Shown here in pieces: positions 9,295 to 37,069 of a stretch of 39,603 bases of DNA. A program made the position numbers and the translations under genes. The stretch is from a virus (lineage: Duplodnaviria > Heunggongvirae > Uroviricota > Caudoviricetes). Below the pieces are notes generated by a model. It was not told the origin of the DNA and did no database searches. It saw only the letters and a program-made list of their open reading frames with translations. The stretch spans positions 1 through 39,603 of the IMG/VR virus record IMGVR_UViG_2778261067_000006; one strand, given 5' to 3'. Each line of letters begins with the position of its first letter. The stretch's first letter is position 1.

Positions 9295-10011
9295 TCAAAC
9301 CAGCCTTAGTTTTGTCTCAATTGCAACGCCTATAATCTTGCAGTTTCCATTGATTGGCACGAGAGGCCATGCAGGATTAAGTCCCTTGAGGTATTTATTT
9401 CCGCCGTCGATTATCAGCTTCTTGAATGTTGCTTCGTTAGAGTCAGAAAGTTTTGCTATGACCAAGCTGCCGTTGATCGCCTCCCTTCCGGTATCGAAAA
9501 GAACGAATGTTCCCTCTGGAATGCTTAACCCAACCGGTGCCGTCATTGAATCACCTTCCACTTTAAGCCAAAACGCATTACCTTGAATATGCGCGTCAGA
9601 CTCAAGCCAAACATCTATGTCTTTAATGGTGTATGGTTCGCATGCTTCACACCACGAGCCAGCCTGGATACTGCTTAACACCGGATACCTCTTTCCTGCT
9701 CTGTATTCCCCTGCATACCTTACGTTGGCATCGCTCTTAAGGCTTTCTGCCTGTTCTGCAACCTTGGCAGCAATTGACTGGCTAAAATCAGCAATTGAGA
9801 CTTGCAACAATCGCGCAAAACCAGATGCAACCTCAACGTTTAGCGCGTTTCTGCCATTAAGATAATGCCCTACCGCTCCTTGGGTGATACCCAGTTCATC
9901 AGCGATTGAGTATTGGGTTATTCCCAATTCTTTCTTTTTTGACTCATACAAAGCCTTAAGCCGCTTAGCGTCTTCGAGCTGTTCTGTCGTCAGTGATTTT
10001 TTATTTTCCAT
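9295..10011 (-). CDS. cI: CI repressor (lambda-type, HTH N-terminus and LexA-like autocleavage C-terminus)
   Basis: 238 aa; ...LTTEQLEDAKRLKALYESKKKELGITQ... parallels lambda CI ...[27 protein letters not shown]...; C-terminal ...FWLKVEGDSMTAP... carries the S24 peptidase motif. Confidence 0.9.
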   Translation of the reverse strand: MENKKSLTTEQLEDAKRLKALYESKKKELGITQYSIADELGITQGAVGHYLNGRNALNVEVASGFARLLQVSIADFSQSIAAKVAEQAESLKSDANVRYAGEYRAGKRYPVLSSIQAGSWCEACEPYTIKDIDVWLESDAHIQGNAFWLKVEGDSMTAPVGLSIPEGTFVLFDTGREAINGSLVIAKLSDSNEATFKKLIIDGGNKYLKGLNPAWPLVPINGNCKIIGVAIETKLRLV

Positions 10012-14414: not shown

Positions 14415-14798
14415 ATGGATTATTCACAGTTAAGTGATTTTGAAATTAACGTGGCGGTATTCGAAGCCATTCATAACGGATCACCGGATTACAAAGAAGG
14501 TGAGAATGGCGCGATGGTGTTTATCTCATTTGAGGGAGACATTGTAAACGGAGACGCAGTTGAAGTAGAGGTTGAGCGCGGATCCTTTAACCCATGCGCA
14601 AACCCAGCAGACGCATGGCCGATTATCACTGAAAACAACATCAGCATAATTTTAGACAATCCCTCAATGCCGTGCGCTACAGACAACGCAAGGGACTTGT
14701 TTGATGATGCCGGACCGAATGTTGGTGTCGCATATGACAATCCACTCCGTGCCGCCATGATTGTCTTTCTCATGATGCAGGACGCCAATAATGCTTAG
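14415..14798 (+). CDS. Hypothetical nin-region protein (NinX/DUF2591-like)
   Basis: Acidic 127-aa ORF in the nin operon; start chosen by SD spacing. Confidence 0.45.
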   Translation: MDYSQLSDFEINVAVFEAIHNGSPDYKEGENGAMVFISFEGDIVNGDAVEVEVERGSFNPCANPADAWPIITENNISIILDNPSMPCATDNARDLFDDAGPNVGVAYDNPLRAAMIVFLMMQDANNA

Positions 14799-14967
14799 CC
14801 CATCCCAATCCCTTCAATACCAGAAAGAAAGCGTCGAGCGAGCTTTAACGTGCGCTAACTGCGGTCAGAAGCTGCATGTGCTGGAAGTTCACGTGTGTGA
14901 GCACTGCTGCGCAGAACTGATGAGCGATCCGAATAGCTCAATGTACGAGGAAGAAGACGATGAATGA
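14791..14967 (+). CDS. ninF: NinF
   Basis: Hand-translated 58 aa: MLSPSQSLQYQKESVERALTCANCGQKLHVLEVHVCEHCCAEL...; resembles lambda NinF. Confidence 0.65.
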   Translation: MLSPSQSLQYQKESVERALTCANCGQKLHVLEVHVCEHCCAELMSDPNSSMYEEEDDE

Positions 14968-15682
14968 GTTAATAAATGGCAACGCCATCAAAATGACAAG
15001 CATTGAAATCGCTGAGTTGGTGGGAAGTCGTCATGACAAGGTGAAACAATCTATTGAACGACTGGCGGCTCGAGGTGTGATCCGAAATCCCCCAATGGTG
15101 GTTTTCGAAAAAATCAATAACTTAGGATTACTTCGTGGCGTAGAGGCTTACGTTTTTGAGGGCGAACAAGGTAAGCGAGACAGTATTGTCGTTGTAGCCC
15201 AGTTGTCGCCGGAATTCACCGCTCGTCTTGTTGATCGTTGGCGAGAGCTTGAAGAAACTACGGTTAATATCCCCAAAACGCTACCGGAAGCGTTGCGCCT
15301 TGCTGCTGATCTTGCTGAGAAGAAAATGCAACTGGAAAACCAGCTCGCAATTGCCGCACCTAAAGTTGAGTTTGCCGATCGCGTTGGCGAGGCCAGCGGA
15401 ATTTTGATTGGAAACTTTGCAAAGGTTGTTGGAATTGGTCCAAACAAACTGTTTGCGTGGATGCGCGATCACAAAATCCTTATTGCTTCAGGTTCCCGGC
15501 GCAATGTGCCAATGCAGGAATATATGGATCGCGGCTATTTCACAGTGAAAGAAACAGCGATCAACACAAATCACGGGATACAGATATCGTTCACCACAAA
15601 AATCACCGGGCGTGGTCAACAGTGGCTGACCAGAAAGCTGCTCGATAACGGAATGCTGAAAGTAACAGGGGAGGCTGCTTAA
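14960..15682 (+). CDS. Antirepressor-like regulatory protein (Rha-like N-terminus plus KilA-C/ANT-like C-terminus)
   Basis: 240 aa; N-terminal ...NAIKMTSIEIAELVGSRHDKV... resembles Rha/pRha; domain assignment from memory. Confidence 0.6.
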   Translation: MNELINGNAIKMTSIEIAELVGSRHDKVKQSIERLAARGVIRNPPMVVFEKINNLGLLRGVEAYVFEGEQGKRDSIVVVAQLSPEFTARLVDRWRELEETTVNIPKTLPEALRLAADLAEKKMQLENQLAIAAPKVEFADRVGEASGILIGNFAKVVGIGPNKLFAWMRDHKILIASGSRRNVPMQEYMDRGYFTVKETAINTNHGIQISFTTKITGRGQQWLTRKLLDNGMLKVTGEAA

Positions 15683-25568: not shown

Positions 25569-26863
25569 TGGCATTAAATGAAGGTCAACTGGTCACGTAT
25601 GCTCTGGATGAAATCATCGAAACCGTCCAGAACCTGACGCCAATGGCGTCCAAAGTGACAAAATACACCCCTCCGGCAGAATCCATGCAGCGTTCAAGCA
25701 ACACCGTGTGGATGCCTGTTGAGCAGGAAGCGCCAACCCAGACTGGCTGGGATTTAACTGGCAAAGCAACCGGGATTCTGGAGCTCTCCGTGAAATGCAA
25801 CATGGGCGATCCGGATAACGATTTCTTCGAGCTTCGTGCAGATGACCTGCGTGATGAGCGTTCTTACCGTCGCCGCATCCAGGCATCCGCCAAAAAACTG
25901 GCGAATAACATTGAGTCAGCGATTGCCAAACAGGCAACTGAAATGGGCTCGCTTGTTGTTCACGATACCCGCGCAATTGGTCCATCTACTGGCCTGTCTG
26001 GCTGGGATTTTGTGTCTGATGCAGAGCGCCTGATGTTCTCCCGTGAGCTAAACCGCGACATGGGCATCAGTTACTTCCTGAACCCTGACGATTACCGCAA
26101 AGCAGGCCGCAATCTTGTAGATGGTGACATCTTCGGGCGCGTTCCTGAAGAAGCGTATCGCAACGGTACTATTCAGCGTCAGATTGCTGGCTTTGATGAA
26201 ATTCTTCGCTCACCGAAACTTCCGGCAGTTACCAAGTCAACCGCTACTGGTGTAACTGTTTCTGGTGCGCAGAAGTTTAAGCCCCAGGCATACACTCTTG
26301 ATACCGATGGTAACAAAGAGAACGTTGACAACCGTGTTGCAACGGTGACCGTATCATCTACCACCGGATTTAAGCGCGGCGACAAAATCAGCTTCACTGG
26401 TGTGAAATTCCTGTCTCAGATGGCGAAGAACGTGCTGACTGATGATGCTACTTTCTCAATCACCCGAGTGATCGATAGTACTCACATCGAAATCACGCCG
26501 AAGCCGATTGCGCTGGATGACGCGTCACTGACAAAAGAAGAGAAGGCTTACGCTAACGTAAACACCTCTCTTGCTGATACCACTCCGGTAAACGTTCTGA
26601 ACGTGGCAACAACCACCGCTAACGTGTTCTGGGCTGATGACTCAATCCGCCTGCTGTCTCAGCCGATTCCGGTAACCCATGAACTGTTTGCTGGCATGAA
26701 AACGTCTTCCTTCAGCATTCCAGGCATTGGTGTTAACGGCATCTTCGCAACGCAGGGTGATATCAACACTCTGTCTGGTAAGTGCCGTATTGCTGTGTGG
26801 TATTCAGCATGTGCTGTACGACCAGAGGCAATTGGTGTTGGTCTGCCTAACCAGACCGCGTGA
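25568..26863 (+). CDS. Major capsid (coat) protein (P22 gp5-type)
   Basis: 431 aa; MALNEGQ...[20 protein letters not shown]... as in P22 coat protein. Confidence 0.95.
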
Positions 26864-31025: not shown

Positions 31026-32438
31026 ATGGCTACTTGGCAACAAGGAATCAACTCAGGCGGTTTTCTTGCTGGTATCGGTGGGCAAAACTCAAATGCGCCA
31101 AAGGCAAGTGATGTAAGTGAGGCGTTGGCCTATATTCGCCAGAACAACGAAATGGAGCGTTCAGGTCGCAATAACATCGGCCTTCAGGCGTTGCAGGGAC
31201 TTGGTAGTGTCGCTCAAACATATCAAGCTGCAAAGCAACAGGAAGCGGATGCTGCATTCCAAAAAGAATATGCGGCAGCCATCCAGTCAGGTGATCGGCA
31301 GCAGGTGCGAGATCTGATGACCAAATATCCTGGTCAATTAGAGAAGATTCAGTCTGGTATGAAGTGGGCAGACGAAGACCAGCGCAATTCTATCGGCACC
31401 TTAGCGGCTGGCGCACGCCTTGCGGCATCGTCTCCAGAAGCAATGCAATCATGGCTGCAAAACAACGCCAAGGAACTGACTCGCGTCGGTGTTGACCCTA
31501 ACAGCGTTGCTCAGATGTATCAGCAGAACCCTTCAGGATTTGGTGAGTTTGTTGATCACCTTGGGATGGCTGCGCTTGGTCCGATTGATTACTTCAATGT
31601 TCAGGACAAGATGGCTGGTCGTGAGATTGATCGCGGAAAACTTGCAGAGACAATCCGCAGCAATCAGGCTGGAGAGGCGCTTCAGGCGAGAGGCCAAAAC
31701 CTTTCCTATCAGTCAGCAATGACTGGGCACAATATCGCAGCACAACGCTTGGCTCTGGATCAGCAAGAGTTCGGGTTTAAGATGCAGCAAGCGCAGGAAA
31801 AGGCACAGCAGTTGATTAGCGAAGCACCTAAGCTGTCAGTAAACATGGAAAAAGGCATCGAGACAGCTGTAAACAATGCCACAGCATCATCAAACTCAGC
31901 CAATTCCATGAGTGCGCTTGCTCAACAGTTCAGAGCAGAAAAACCAACGACAGGTTTGTTCGGTAACGCACAGAACATGTTCGCAAAACTTACCGGAAGC
32001 GATACGACATTGCGTGATTTGCGCATTCGCCAAAATGCCCTTGTTAACAGTCAGGTTCTTAAATTCCTACCTCCCGGCCCCGCAACGGATAAAGACGTTG
32101 AGATCGTTCGTCAGGGTGCACCAACTGACATGGATAACCCTGAGACGGTCGCAAGATGGCTTGATGCTATGGCAAACCTTGAGCGACGAAACGCGCAGTT
32201 TAATGAGTTTAAAGCCGAGTGGATGAGCGCGAATGGCAACCCTGGACAATCGCGTAATGGCGGTCAGATATTGGGGTTGGATGTTAAAAAAGGTGAATCA
32301 TTGGGGAGTGCCGTTAAGCGGTATATGTCAATGAATACTGACGCAGCGCCAGCACAAGATTCGACACCTTCAGGTGAACCACGGAATCAGGTTGGATCAT
32401 ATACCTCAAAATCAGGCATTCAATTTACGGTGGAATGA
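31026..32438 (+). CDS. Ejection (DNA transfer) protein, gp20 position
   Basis: 470 aa versus about 471 for P22 gp20; synteny. Confidence 0.6.
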
Positions 32439-34282
32439 TGAAAGTAACTGCAAACGGTAAGACATTTACCTTTCCTGATGGTACGAGCACCGAAGATATT
32501 GGCACCGCCATTGATGAGTATTTTGCTGGTCAGGCTGTTCAGCAACAAACAGTTAATCAGGCCAATAATGCACCAACACGGGAAGAACCATCATTGATGC
32601 AACAAGCTGGCGATTGGCTCACTGGTGGTCAAAGTGCAGGGCAAATTGCAGAACAAGCTGGTCGTGGTCTGGTAAACATACCATTTGACGTATTGCAGGG
32701 CGGCGCAAGTCTGATTAATGCAATCAGTCAGGGGCTTGGTGGCCCCAAGGTTTTGGATGATGTTTATCGTCCAGTAGACAGACCGACAGACTCCTACGCA
32801 CAAGCCGGTGAAACAATTGGTGGGTATTTAGTTCCAGGAGTTGGAACGGCAGGAAGCATGGCTATTGGATCACTGGCAGAGGCCGCAAATCAGAAAGGCG
32901 ATTTCGCACAAAATGCAGCTAAAAATGCCGGAGTTAACCTTGCCGCTCAGGGTGTTCTTTCCGCAGCAGCAAAGGGAATAGGGCGTGGAATAACGGCTAT
33001 AAAAGGTGATATTGCGCCAGAAGTGGCGAAGAAAATTGCCACATCAGAATCGATGGGCGTGACACCAATGACATCTGATGTTATCCCGCCGAAAAATGCT
33101 TTCACTCGTAGCCTTACTCAGGATGCCGAGGGGGCTTTGCTCGGGACAGGCTCAAAGCGAGCGGAGCAATATGCAACGCGTAGTAAGCTGGTAAGCAATT
33201 ATTTTGACCGTTTTGGTGAGTACAACCCTGATGATGTGGTGAAATCTCTGACCACCACGTTAAGGGGGCGGAAGGATGCCGCTGGCGCTGTTATCAATGA
33301 CGTCACCAATAAAATGGGTAATGCCGCAGTTGATACCACAAATACCATGAATGCTCTGAATACAGCGATCGCAAGACAGGAACGGCTTGGGACGTCTGCC
33401 AATCAAAGCCTGCTTACATCCTTGCGTAACCTACGTGAAGAATTAGCAAACCCTGCAACTGATTTGGATGTTACGTTTGATCTCTTGCGTCAGCACAGAA
33501 CAGCATTTAGATCTAATGTTCAGGGAGATGCTATGGTCTTCCCCAACCAGGCAAAAGCAGCTACCAATATGGTAGAGAATGCAATGTCAAAAGACCTTCG
33601 TAACGCAGTTGCAAAAAACCTCGGTGCGTCAGACGCAGCAAAATACCTTAAAGCAAATTCCGATTATGCAAACGTTTATAATAAGGTGCTTAATAAAAAC
33701 ATTGCCAACAAGCTCAACAAGGCAAGCAGTGAAGCCAGTCCTGAACTTATAAATACCGTTGTATTAAGCAGAAAACCATCTGACGTGAAACGAATCTGGA
33801 GCGCACTGGATGATAAGGGGAAAGATGCTATGCGTGCAGCTTACGTCAGCAAAATAGCGGAAAAGGCCGGGGACTCTCCAGCCAAGTTCATCACTGAAGT
33901 TAATAAGCTGAAATCTCAGTCAGGCGGTGAAATTTACAACACTATTTTTTCTGGAAAGCACATGAAAGAGCTTGATGCTCTTCATGAAGTTCTACAGCAA
34001 ACAGCAAGGTCAGACACCGCAAATGTAGTAACTCAGACGGGGCAATCGCAAGCCAACAGGATAAGGACGATTGGCGCAACTGCGACTCTTGGCGTATCAA
34101 TGGGGCTTGAGGCTGGTTTCGGTGCAATGATGCGCTTGTATGAGTCAAAAGCAGCAAGGAATGCTCTCTTACGTTTGGCAAACACCAAAGCAGGAACACC
34201 AGCCTATGAAAGAGCGCTAAATAATGCTGCAAATGCGATACGCCCTATACTTTCAAGCCAAATTACAGCAGAACAGCAATAA
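32435..34282 (+). CDS. Ejection (DNA transfer) protein, gp16 position
   Basis: 615 aa versus about 609 for P22 gp16; synteny. Confidence 0.65.
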
Positions 34283-34295
34283 AAATAAGATATAA

Positions 34296-34781
34296 CTATC
34301 TGATATTGCTGCTACTGTTACATGTTACCGTGTTTCCAAATCCTGAATTGCAGTTTGTATATGTGTCAACGCGTGTTGGGTAAGGTTGAGTTATAACAGG
34401 CTGGCGCGCTTTTTGCTCGATCGCTTGCATTGTGTTTACAGCCTGATAATTCAATAAAGCCTGCTGGAATGCTTGGCTTTGTGCTATTTGTTGTGCTTGT
34501 TCTTGGCTTTGTAATTGAACATAAAGATTCTGAAGTTCAAGTCTTGCCTGTGTGTCACTTATCTTGCCTTCATCGACACCTTGCCCGAGCATCTTCGCAG
34601 CAAGGACATAAAGCTTAGGTGTTGGTGCTGATGCCATGCGTGAGTCGTTCTTCACACTGGCATCAAGGCAATTAGCCATATCGCTAAGCTTTTGATAGCG
34701 TTGTTCGCAACTTGCTTGATAGTCACTTACTTTTGCGCATCCAACCAGCAGAAGCGGGATAATTAACAGTGATTTTTTCAT
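34296..34781 (-). CDS. Lipoprotein (signal peptidase II signal MKKSLLIIPLLLVGC), Gln-rich, several Cys
   Basis: Start at the ATG with AAGGAG SD; lipobox LLVGC; Ala at +2 suggests outer-membrane sorting; convergent with gp16 and co-oriented with mnt. Confidence 0.6.
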   Translation of the reverse strand: MKKSLLIIPLLLVGCAKVSDYQASCEQRYQKLSDMANCLDASVKNDSRMASAPTPKLYVLAAKMLGQGVDEGKISDTQARLELQNLYVQLQSQEQAQQIAQSQAFQQALLNYQAVNTMQAIEQKARQPVITQPYPTRVDTYTNCNSGFGNTVTCNSSSNIR

Positions 34782-34851: not shown

Positions 34852-35121
34852 CTATGTTTCCTTTTTATTATTGCTATACATGGTCTTAAGCGTATCAAAG
34901 ACAATTTTCTTAACCATATCAGATTGTTGTTCTGCCATACGCTCTGCATCGTCAATATAAACTGATGCAGAGCTTTGTTTAGCCAATGATTCTTCAATCG
35001 CTGCAATTATCTCTGAGTTCAGCGACCTGTTATTCATCTTCGCACGCTGCTTAATTTTCGCGTGGAGTTCATGCGGAAGTCTCAAGTGAAACTGCGCCTC
35101 GTCGTATTTGCTGTACATCAT
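34852..35121 (-). CDS. mnt: Mnt-like ribbon-helix-helix repressor (Arc/MetJ family)
   Basis: ...NNRSLNSEIIAAIEESL... and ...IDDAERMAEQQSDMVKKIVFDTLKTMY... parallel P22 Mnt (...GRSMNSELLQIVQDAL...NDAERLADEQSELVKKMVFDTLKDLY...). Confidence 0.75.
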   Translation of the reverse strand: MMYSKYDEAQFHLRLPHELHAKIKQRAKMNNRSLNSEIIAAIEESLAKQSSASVYIDDAERMAEQQSDMVKKIVFDTLKTMYSNNKKET

Positions 35122-35239
35122 CAATGCCTCACCAAATGGGTGGAATGGCATCGTAACCTACTGGATAAATACTCAATAGTACCATTTCGGTATGTAACCA
35201 CATCATGGTTGCATCATAACATTCGTCTGGAGCAATGAA

Positions 35240-37069
35240 ATGTCAGATATCACCGCAAATGTTGTGGTAAGCATGCCTTCGCAACTCTTCACTATGGCGC
35301 GTTCTTTTAAAGCCGTGGCTAATGGCAAAATTTATATCGGAAAAATTGACACTGACCCGGTAAATCCTGAAAACCAGATTCAGGTCTATGTTGAGAACGA
35401 AGACGGTTCTCACGTTCCTGTTGCACAGCCAATCATCATTAACGCTGGCGGGTATCCTGTATATAACGGACAGATTGCCAAATTCGTAACTGTGCAAGGC
35501 CATTCTATGGCTGTTTATGATGCGTACGGTGCGCAGCAGTTTTATTTTCCGAATGTGCTGAAGTATGACCCTGATCAGCTAAGAGTTGATTTATATGGCA
35601 TTTACGGTTCTACGCTTATAGGATGGGCAACATATGAAGATATAAGAAATTACTCAGGTAATGGCGAGATAATAAATTGCAGAGGTAGAAGTTATAAAAA
35701 TGATAATGGATGTGGTTTTTTTGTTGTTGATAAAATAGACACATCAGCACAAGATAATGACGGAACAATATTAGTTGATCTCCTTGGGAGAAGATGGAAA
35801 AGACAATTTGCAGGAGATATAAACGTTTCATGGTTTCTTGATGGAAACGGTCCTGATGTAAATTCATCAATTGGGTTTCAGAATTGCATTAATGCCTACC
35901 CGCACTCAAGGATTTTAATTCCTTTCGCACCAGATGGTTATTATTTTTTTAATGAGGTTGTTGAGCCGCAGAGTTCATCTTTTCAATTGATTTGTTGCGA
36001 CGGAATGCAAGTGAATAATCAACAGTTGATTTACGTTAATTTCAACGGGGCAGCATTCAAGTGTGAGTCAACAAATACAACTTTTACCAAGTATCAGGGA
36101 ATTCGTTTTGAGACGGACAAGGAGTCTTATCCTTTAGCACAAGCTATACGTAATGATGGGTTTTTAGTGCATGGGGAAATTAAAAATATAACTGTAAAAA
36201 ATTTCTCTAGCAAGGCAATACAGATAAACGGATGTAATTGTTGCAATTATGAGCAGGTTCTTATCCAGTTCAATGATGATTTTGGTCTTTTCACTCTTGC
36301 AGGTGCGGCTAATACATTCGACAGAATAGTCGGTGATAATAATAACGGTGGAGTTATGTACTCAGTCGGAGCATCTAACGCATATAGAAACTTATACTCC
36401 GAGGATTGCTGCAAAACCAACGTTAGCGCTTCTGACACAAATCCAGAGTTTTATTTCGGAGGTGATTCCCATACTGTTACAAATATCTCCATAAACTCCT
36501 ACCCCGGGAACGCCACACCTCCGGTTAAACTAGATTTCTGCCGCAATATGACAATGATTGGCGCATCCAATAAATCATCAACAGCGCCTTCATATTCATA
36601 TGAGATAGAGTTGACTAATCAGGATTCAAGTTTAACGCTTATCAACAGTTCCGATATACGCATTAAACCAGGCGTTGATTCTAAAAACACGATAAAAATA
36701 GATGCTGGTTACGCATCTTTATCTCCATCAATAGTTGTTGGTGGATATGGAAGAGATATAATAAAAAATACACCAATATCAACAGCGTGCTTCTCATCCG
36801 ATGGCACAATATTAGAGGCAAATGGTATAGCAAGGGTTGAATACAACACCACCGGAACTTATTCTATATATATGGCAGAACAGGTTAATAATGCTGAAGG
36901 AATTAGGGTTATAGGTAGTGCTGACGCGGAAGGATATGATTATTTTGTAGTTGTTTCTGAAAAAGGAAGCTTTAGAACAAATTCATCAGTAAGAATTGAA
37001 ACCAGAGATACTGCTGGAAACCTAGTTTCACCAAAACATGTTTCTGTGGCTATTTATGGATCTGTATGA
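35240..37069 (+). CDS. Tailspike: conserved P22-type N-terminal head-binding domain with a divergent receptor-binding/enzymatic domain
   Basis: First ~115 aa ([59 protein letters not shown]...VLKYDPDQ) nearly match P22 gp9; the remainder is unrelated and visibly AT-rich. Confidence 0.85.

Follow-up and report, generated by a model that had tools for sequence, protein, structure and literature searches.

The junction between mnt and the tailspike gene in this prophage is probably best explained as a reduced immI region, in which a self-acting cassette of mnt, its promoter Pmnt and an operator stands beside a tailspike gene that would be expressed by late read-through. The DNA analyzed here (the window, 39,603 nt) is a P22-like (Lederbergvirus) prophage of the E. 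coli/Shigella type, with HZ41 and IME10 as the nearest phage records. Along the region of interest, a gene 16 homolog is followed by a lipoprotein gene, mnt, a 118-bp spacer, the tailspike gene, an acyltransferase gene and an integrase gene (Table 1), and the N-terminal head-binding domain of the tailspike is P22-like. The stretch from gene 16 to the tailspike has been named the “ant moron,” and ST64T, ST104, and Para1 have been reported to carry mnt only (Villafane et al., 2008; PMC2629481). Phage L likewise has mnt without arc and ant, and its authors left open whether the gene has a new function or is decaying (doi 10.1101/2020.10.05.325894). A first-pass annotation of this DNA had pointed out the mnt-only layout, which is not special to the window; it is widespread and already present in this literature. 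Judged by its sequence, the window cassette is a new allele of the described arrangement, with a newly predicted operator specificity.

Table 1. Features of the mnt-tailspike junction and related genes in the window.
Feature	Position	Strand	Basis or remark
Prophage repressor, LexA-like with S24 peptidase domain	9295-10011		
ANT-domain gene	14960-15682		Pfam ANT, E 6.8e-33; PHROG 63, E 1.4e-94
Gene 16 homolog	32435-34282	plus	
Predicted lipoprotein, 161 aa (MKKSLLIIPLLLVGC...)	34296-34781	minus	PHROG 6067, E 4e-110
mnt	34852-35118 (or 35121)	minus	Pfam Arc and Repressor_Mnt; PDB 1MNT and 1QEY
mnt-tailspike spacer, 118 bp	35122-35239		
mnt ribosome-binding region, GTGAGGCAT	35124-35132	minus	GAGG 5-8 nt ahead of the ATGs; read from the sequence
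Degenerate Pant remnant, ATGGCA-15-TAAATA	35145-35171	plus	Position of P22 TTGACA-17-TATATT
Predicted Pmnt	35150-35176	minus	-35 TTGAGT 35176-35171; 15-nt spacer; -10 TACGAT 35155-35150
Predicted Mnt operator, AGTACCATTTCGGTATG	35178-35194		Core TACC-N5-GGTA at 35180-35192; Pmnt -35 one base away
Candidate tailspike-leader hairpin, ATGTAACCA/CATCA/TGGTTGCAT	35192-35214	plus	9 pairs, one U.G; minimum-energy fold
Tailspike ribosome-binding site, TGGAG	35228-35232	plus	
Tailspike, 609 aa, ATG 35240	35240-37069	plus	Pfam Head_binding, E 8e-67
Acyltransferase, then integrase	beyond tailspike	both minus	

Identity of the mnt Gene and Its Product

The minus-strand ORF at 34852-35151 matched the Pfam Arc family (PF03869, E 1.1e-14) above the family cut-off, and its product also matched Repressor_Mnt (PF11423, E 1.6e-12) and the solved structures of P22 Mnt (1MNT, E 5.5e-19; 1QEY, E 1.1e-6). 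Identity to P22 Mnt was 47%. An N-terminal ribbon-helix-helix (Arc-like) DNA-binding domain was recognized by Pfam and by alignment to 1MNT, and a C-terminal coiled-coil tetramerisation domain by PF11423 and 1QEY. Together, these matches identify the predicted product as a Mnt-family ribbon-helix-helix repressor with a tetramerisation tail.

Translation most likely begins at ATG 35118 (MYSKYDE..., 88 aa) or at 35121 (89 aa), since a GAGG ribosome-binding site lies ahead of both codons. The stretch of the ORF up to 35151 is probably not translated: the extra N-terminal residues differ radically among relatives (F/T, LM/SR) while MYSKYDE onward is stable, and the upstream ATG lies within the predicted Pmnt -10, which the extension crosses. 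A GATGCCT block at the ribosome-binding region is conserved across genera. Taking 35121 as the start reproduces the spacer length of 118 bp given by the first-pass annotation.

Mnt homologs are misnamed “partition protein ATPase” in RefSeq phage records including NC_027398 (Sf101) and NC_002371 (P22), a name that apparently comes from PHROG 795, and mnt is unannotated in the IME10 record NC_019501. Nothing on Sf101 Mnt was found in the literature searched.

Absence of arc, ant, and sar

We searched the window by tblastn with eight proteins, among them P22 and Kapi1 Arc, the Ant proteins of P22, Kapi1, and CUS-3, a P22AR-type antirepressor and SieA. Neither arc (best E 0.17 with the two Arc queries) nor ant (best E about 0.06 with the three Ant queries, within the nin-region ANT-domain ORF) was detected in the window, and the P22AR-type antirepressor and SieA gave no significant match there. 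Pfam revealed no further Arc-like protein among ten small ORFs from the early region and the nin region, and no known RNA family was matched by Rfam in the window or the spacer; the gap between operator and tailspike is too small for sar. The 80 nearest IMG/VR relatives of mnt were likewise without arc or ant. Set against a complete P22-type immI, the window has no arc, ant, sar, or strong rightward ant promoter, and the earlier description of mnt as an orphan, which an arc/ant pair elsewhere in the window would have contradicted, held up.

The first-pass annotation had also pointed to an antirepressor-like gene in the nin region, and the matches to Pfam ANT and PHROG 63 confirm the presence of this ANT/KilAC-domain gene at 14960-15682. 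Its ATG shares bases with the stop codon of a ninF-like ORF (14786-14962; ATGA), and the gene sits between ninX and ybcO. Because of this overlap, the gene is, on its predicted layout, an embedded member of the nin operon rather than an antirepressor under separate control. It lacks a promoter gap of its own, and no LexA box was found before it, one-mismatch matches occurring at chance level. An operator matrix run over the window returned no Mnt-like site near it. With no Mnt site nearby and the gene lying within the nin operon, a tie between Mnt and this gene is not supported.

The Predicted Mnt Operator

The spacer contains two palindromes, which had been placed at about 35181-35193 and about 35198-35220. 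Both are real, lying one base and about six bases away from those positions, respectively. In the alignment of the spacer with P22 Omnt and Pant, the first palindrome, TACC-N5-GGTA, sits exactly at the annotated position of the P22 Mnt operator, right after CTCAAT, the complement of which carries the Pmnt -35. Taken by themselves, palindromes are weakly above chance in the 118-nt spacer, an inverted repeat this good arising in 7% of shuffles, so that their significance comes from the comparison with relatives.

TACC-N5-GGTA was seen three times in the whole window, against 0.17 expected. With the operator matrix, AGTACCATTTCGGTATG was the single strong match, scoring 23.4 compared to 12.9 for the best non-cognate site, in the coat gene. 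Two candidates for a second Mnt site, at 26578-26590 in the coat gene and 33562-33574 in the gene 16 homolog, are without flanking operator bases and have low matrix scores; both are probably chance occurrences.

The palindrome co-varies with the DNA-reading beta-strand of Mnt over three classes. Class A combines the recognition strand HFNFRM with operator AGGTCCACGGTGGACCT, class B combines QFNLRL with AAGACCACnGTGGTCT, and class C, to which the window belongs, combines QFHLRL with [A/C]GTACCnTTTnGGTAT; the three operators differ from each other at half-site positions. Given its location at the P22 operator position and its change in step with the recognition strand, TACC-N5-GGTA is very probably the Mnt operator. 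The predicted specificity code across the classes is His6 to Gln and Asn8 to His.

These classes differ in the company they keep. Among 80 tailspike-anchored loci, all 13 with HFNFRM carry arc, and a wider tally of class A found the operator kept together with a perfect TTGACA-17-TATATT ant promoter in 15 of 16 cases; only the second, tandem mnt of CUS-3 departs from this. Classes B and C were orphan in all loci found. Over 160 IMG/VR loci and the phage records examined, arc or ant co-occurred with class A and two other classes only. In CUS-3 itself (L012, 1453-1982), two tandem mnt genes of different classes are followed by ant, with no arc, and “boundary sequences” are marked in the record at the flanks of ant and of the tailspike leader.

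Although the flanks diverge, Escherichia, Salmonella, Buttiauxella, and Serratia all keep the class C site, and Citrobacter has it with a single change in the core. Conservation across these five genera falls in blocks, namely the palindrome arms, TTG of the -35, TACGAT of the -10, and the ribosome-binding site; the stretches that separate them vary, as do the bases at the center of the palindrome. Constraint on the operator is not absolute, since about 11% of close relatives are changed in the core half-sites or next to them. No co-variation of operator variants with Mnt variants was seen inside class C.

Among the 80 exact operator matches listed from IMG/VR, 24 adjoin an orphan Mnt; the remaining matches all lie in unrelated contigs and have no Ant or Arc homolog by them. 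Nor was the class C operator found before antirepressor genes in IMG/VR among the matches listed. This distribution bears on the idea that Mnt confers immunity in trans, with prophage Mnt acting on the ant promoters of related phages that enter with the same operator, silencing them and so shielding the resident repressor from a foreign antirepressor. It is established that P22 prophage Mnt represses ant, and a role of this kind would account for selection on a repressor without local cargo. However, classes B and C never occurred with arc or ant in the loci and records above, about 240 loci (the listed matches included) held no ant-linked class B or C operator, and the operators of the three classes are distinct at their half-sites. 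We therefore regard immunity in trans as quite improbable.

The same palindrome, GTACCGTTTCGGTATG, also occurs in four unrelated phage contigs (L189, L195, L233, and L249; about 54% GC), as copies 515 bp apart in repeated intergenic sequence before small minus-strand genes. The loci examined from these contigs gave no match to a Mnt homolog. The recurrence may be due to chance or may mark a site for another regulator.

Promoters and the Likely Target of Mnt

Position-by-position alignment to the annotated P22 promoters places a predicted Pmnt at the position of P22 Pmnt (TTGAGA-17-TATCAT). Relatives in Salmonella, Buttiauxella, and Serratia keep the hexamers TTGTTG-17-TACGAT around a spacer of varying sequence, and the window type is TTGAGT-15-TACGAT, its 15-nt spacer being the result of a 2-bp deletion. 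A consensus promoter scan of the mnt-tailspike spacer returned no promoter-like site in either direction: the window Pmnt is below the threshold of the scan, and a 15-nt spacer is suboptimal. As the scan found nothing, the Pmnt and Pant assignments derive solely from their positional match to P22. Transcription of mnt from the predicted Pmnt is accordingly uncertain, owing to both the 15-nt spacer and the sub-threshold score.

On the opposite strand, the Pant position is degenerate, with ATGGCA followed by CAAATC, CGAACC, TAAACC, or TAAATA as the -10 among relatives. Arc-bearing class A loci keep a perfect Pant, while the orphan classes do not. We found no conserved rightward promoter into the tailspike, and no terminator-like site from gene 16 to the tailspike start. 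The operator is upstream of the Pmnt -35, with its center at about -45, which is not a classic repressing position. In P22, Mnt bound at that position raises Pmnt activity indirectly by silencing Pant.

The first-pass annotation had offered the tailspike or the mnt promoter itself as the target of Mnt. With the operator placed by Pmnt, its second suggestion is the most plausible one: because Pant is degenerate and a conserved rightward promoter into the tailspike is lacking, self-control of mnt is the best-supported reading of the sequence, and control of the tailspike is unsupported. For Mnt to gate the tailspike, either a rightward promoter would have to overlap the operator, or bound Mnt would have to block the polymerases of the late operon. 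Several features could be taken to favor such gating. The gene divergent from mnt encodes a receptor-binding protein, recognized by its tailspike head-binding domain, in 79 of the 80 nearest IMG/VR relatives, and the layout recurs in a Serratia relative whose tail protein is a different one. The start region of the former ant promoter lies under the operator, and the whole spacer is more conserved than synonymous sites (diversity 0.0115 versus 0.081 at mnt third codon positions, about seven times lower). Moreover, the region has been speculated to modulate read-through into the tailspike (Villafane et al., 2008; PMC2629481). On the other hand, neither the promoter scan nor the Pant hexamers, degenerate and variable among relatives, provide the promoter, the leader is swappable and occurs also behind ant terminators and with other mnt classes, and the Serratia relative has a terminator between the operator and the tail gene. 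Gating of the tailspike by Mnt is, on balance, unlikely.

In the reduced immI (“ant moron”) that we propose, the absence of arc, sar, and ant is read as loss. What would remain is mnt with its own promoter and one cognate operator, joined directly to an exchangeable tailspike leader. Host RNA polymerase would transcribe mnt from Pmnt in the lysogen, and Mnt tetramers would bind AGTACCATTTCGGTATG, a site that adjoins the Pmnt -35 and overlies the start region of the former ant promoter. Locally, Mnt would act chiefly by feedback on mnt itself, and possibly on the downstream lipoprotein gene as well; any leftover rightward initiation would likewise be silenced by Mnt. The tailspike would be expressed via read-through from the late operon, as in P22, and not from a Mnt-controlled promoter, and the second palindrome would form a plus-strand RNA hairpin of the tailspike leader, unrelated to Mnt.

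Comparison to Known mnt Loci

The window resembles P22 immI in its location between the gene 16 homolog and the tailspike, in its leftward mnt encoding a two-domain Mnt, and in having a palindromic operator and Pmnt hexamers at matching positions. It differs in being without arc, sar, ant, and the ant terminator, in its degenerate ant promoter, and in an operator that runs straight into the tailspike leader. Recognition strand and half-site also differ, being HFNFRM and GGTCCAC in P22 and QFHLRL and GTACCAT in the window. The Mnt-only morons of ST64T, ST104, and L share with the window an orphan mnt between an injection-protein gene and the tailspike, and their palindrome and Pmnt are kept. 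Their allele is a different one, however (48.7% identity): its recognition strand is QFNLRL and its operator AAGACCACCGTGGTCT, with an AGACC site in ST64T and L, compared to QFHLRL and a GTACC site in the window, and the junction with the tailspike leader and the neighboring genes differ too. Sf101 and IME10 match the window in mnt allele (the proteins are about 90% identical), in operator, in hairpin, and in tailspike leader, but the left arm of their hairpin is ATGCAATCA instead of ATGTAACCA, and in Sf101 the lipoprotein gene after mnt is absent.

The Tailspike Leader and the Second Palindrome

Homology among class C loci breaks a few bases past the operator (GGTATG[C/T]AA[C/T]), after which at least four tailspike leaders follow. 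Their palindromes are CCGTAGC-CAT-GCTGCGG in P22 (locus L004, 3161-3177), CCGCAG-N5-CTGTGG in Buttiauxella/Citrobacter, ATTCAAT-N9-ATTGAAT in one Escherichia sp. prophage, and ATGTAACCA-CATCA-TGGTTGCAT in the window. Each leader hairpin ends 12-13 nt ahead of a CTGGAG ribosome-binding site (loci including L017, L018, and L020); in the window, the distance from the hairpin end to TGGAG is 13 nt. The P22-type leader can also follow an ant terminator or a class B mnt. As these sequences are arranged, the tailspike leader is a separate, exchangeable module. In one IMG/VR contig (L144), foreign sequence, which we take to resemble the end of IS2, replaces the tailspike leader a few bases past the Mnt operator, and its breakpoint is the same point at which leader types switch.

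The second palindrome had been noted beside the first when regulation by Mnt was proposed, a link that did not survive the comparison of leaders. Since leader types swap past the operator and are shared with phages that have a full arc-ant or another mnt, this palindrome, judged from its position, is part of the tailspike leader, not a site for Mnt. It is also quite unlikely to be a DNA site of some other kind, such as one for another dimeric protein. The palindrome does abut the first, with a one-base overlap, and its 9-nt arms have one mismatch (8 of 9 positions complementary). However, relatives with the same Mnt and operator are wholly different there, the half-sites are unlike those of the operator, and an inverted repeat of this quality is reached in the proportion of shuffles given above. 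In addition, variants of the arms stay paired on the plus strand by way of U.G, which would break DNA symmetry, and one relative shows a compensated change from G-C to U-A.

In the window-type stem, pair 7 is found as C-G, U.G, and U-A, and pair 3 as G-C, or as U-A in an Escherichia sp. relative. The P22-type stem shows the series C-G, U.G, and U-A at its pair 2, along with several changes in the arms that give G.U. The stem variants are compatible with pairing on the plus strand only. About 97% of cells are paired, and one pair is changed on both sides per hairpin type. The observed covariation measures are reached by 36-56 of 500 shuffles, the folding z-scores (-0.7, -1.7, and +0.1) are not significant, and the stem is absent in a few relatives. 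The pattern is suggestive of a plus-strand RNA hairpin in the tailspike leader, and this hairpin may be a conserved element of the P22-like tailspike mRNA leader.

Two other candidates in the spacer were discarded. The second palindrome does not appear to be an intrinsic terminator, which would be a GC-rich stem with a run of T after it: no terminator-like site was found in the spacer, and the stem is followed by CATAACATTCG. A plus-strand ORF at 35062-35238 was rejected as coding because it is interrupted in Sf101 and VSe13.

Genes Downstream of mnt

A gene for a predicted lipoprotein follows mnt in the same orientation after 70 nt. Its product has the lipobox LLVGC and belongs to a family of unknown function (PHROG 6067). 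No minus-strand terminator-like site was found from mnt to this gene, which is possibly co-transcribed with mnt. The lipoprotein is downstream of mnt in 43 of 80 relatives, and a Buttiauxella prophage has a different lipoprotein after mnt (L018, 3301-3684). In P22, the corresponding place is held by orf59a and sieA. The lipoprotein may be cargo expressed by the prophage, for example an exclusion factor.

Some class C loci (L009-L011 in E. coli, L021 in Serratia) have one or two antirepressor-like genes, of the P22AR or BRO-N type, that lie beyond mnt and are convergent with it. In L011 they are accompanied by a divergent helix-turn-helix regulator of their own. A class C operator was not detected close to the genes of this type in L009-L011 and L021.

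Prevalence and Selection

The mnt-tailspike junction is found at 93-95% DNA identity in phages Sf101 and IME10, and the arrangement is present with other alleles in VSe13, Gally, and 720R6. Relatives occur in genomes of Escherichia, Citrobacter, Buttiauxella, and Serratia, as well as in the Salmonella phage VSe13, and 248 of 5426 complete E. coli genomes (about 4.6%) carry the arrangement.

All 81 close coding sequences of mnt are intact. Within this set of relatives, pN/pS was 0.048 for the DNA-binding domain and 0.105 overall; between genera, where synonymous differences reach 0.65-1.0, it was 0.06-0.2. With every close relative intact and pN/pS low even between genera, mnt is under strong purifying selection and is not a decaying remnant. 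The possibility that mnt and its site are a decaying leftover of a recent arc-ant deletion was raised for the mnt-like gene of phage L by its authors (doi 10.1101/2020.10.05.325894). A broken mnt together with a mutated half-site is indeed seen in one Citrobacter prophage, and the changes in or next to the operator core half-sites of about one in nine relatives point in the same direction. Against these stand the 81 intact genes, a pN/pS (0.05-0.1) that stays low at synonymous saturation between genera, and an arrangement common to five genera and to a sizeable number of E. coli genomes, which together make decay very improbable.

Implications for P22-Like Phages

On the question posed by the authors of phage L, our selection data point to mnt being kept by selection. 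What it would be kept for can be addressed tentatively. It is conceivable, if unlikely, that the orphan cassette of mnt and operator has been selected in its own right as a regulatory module at the junction of the late operon and the receptor-binding gene, with a role that does not depend on an antirepressor, and that the tailspike leader carries a conserved plus-strand RNA hairpin acting on mRNA stability or translation. If so, the roles of the module might include metering late transcription into the tailspike, serving as a head-on promoter and roadblock, or directing expression of prophage cargo such as the lipoprotein.

The overall understanding of P22-like phages is unchanged by these results. 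A practical point is that public records misname mnt or leave it out. Two of the three specificity classes, B and C, occur solely as orphans in the loci found, and the three predicted pairs of Mnt and operator specificities form a natural set for work on ribbon-helix-helix recognition.
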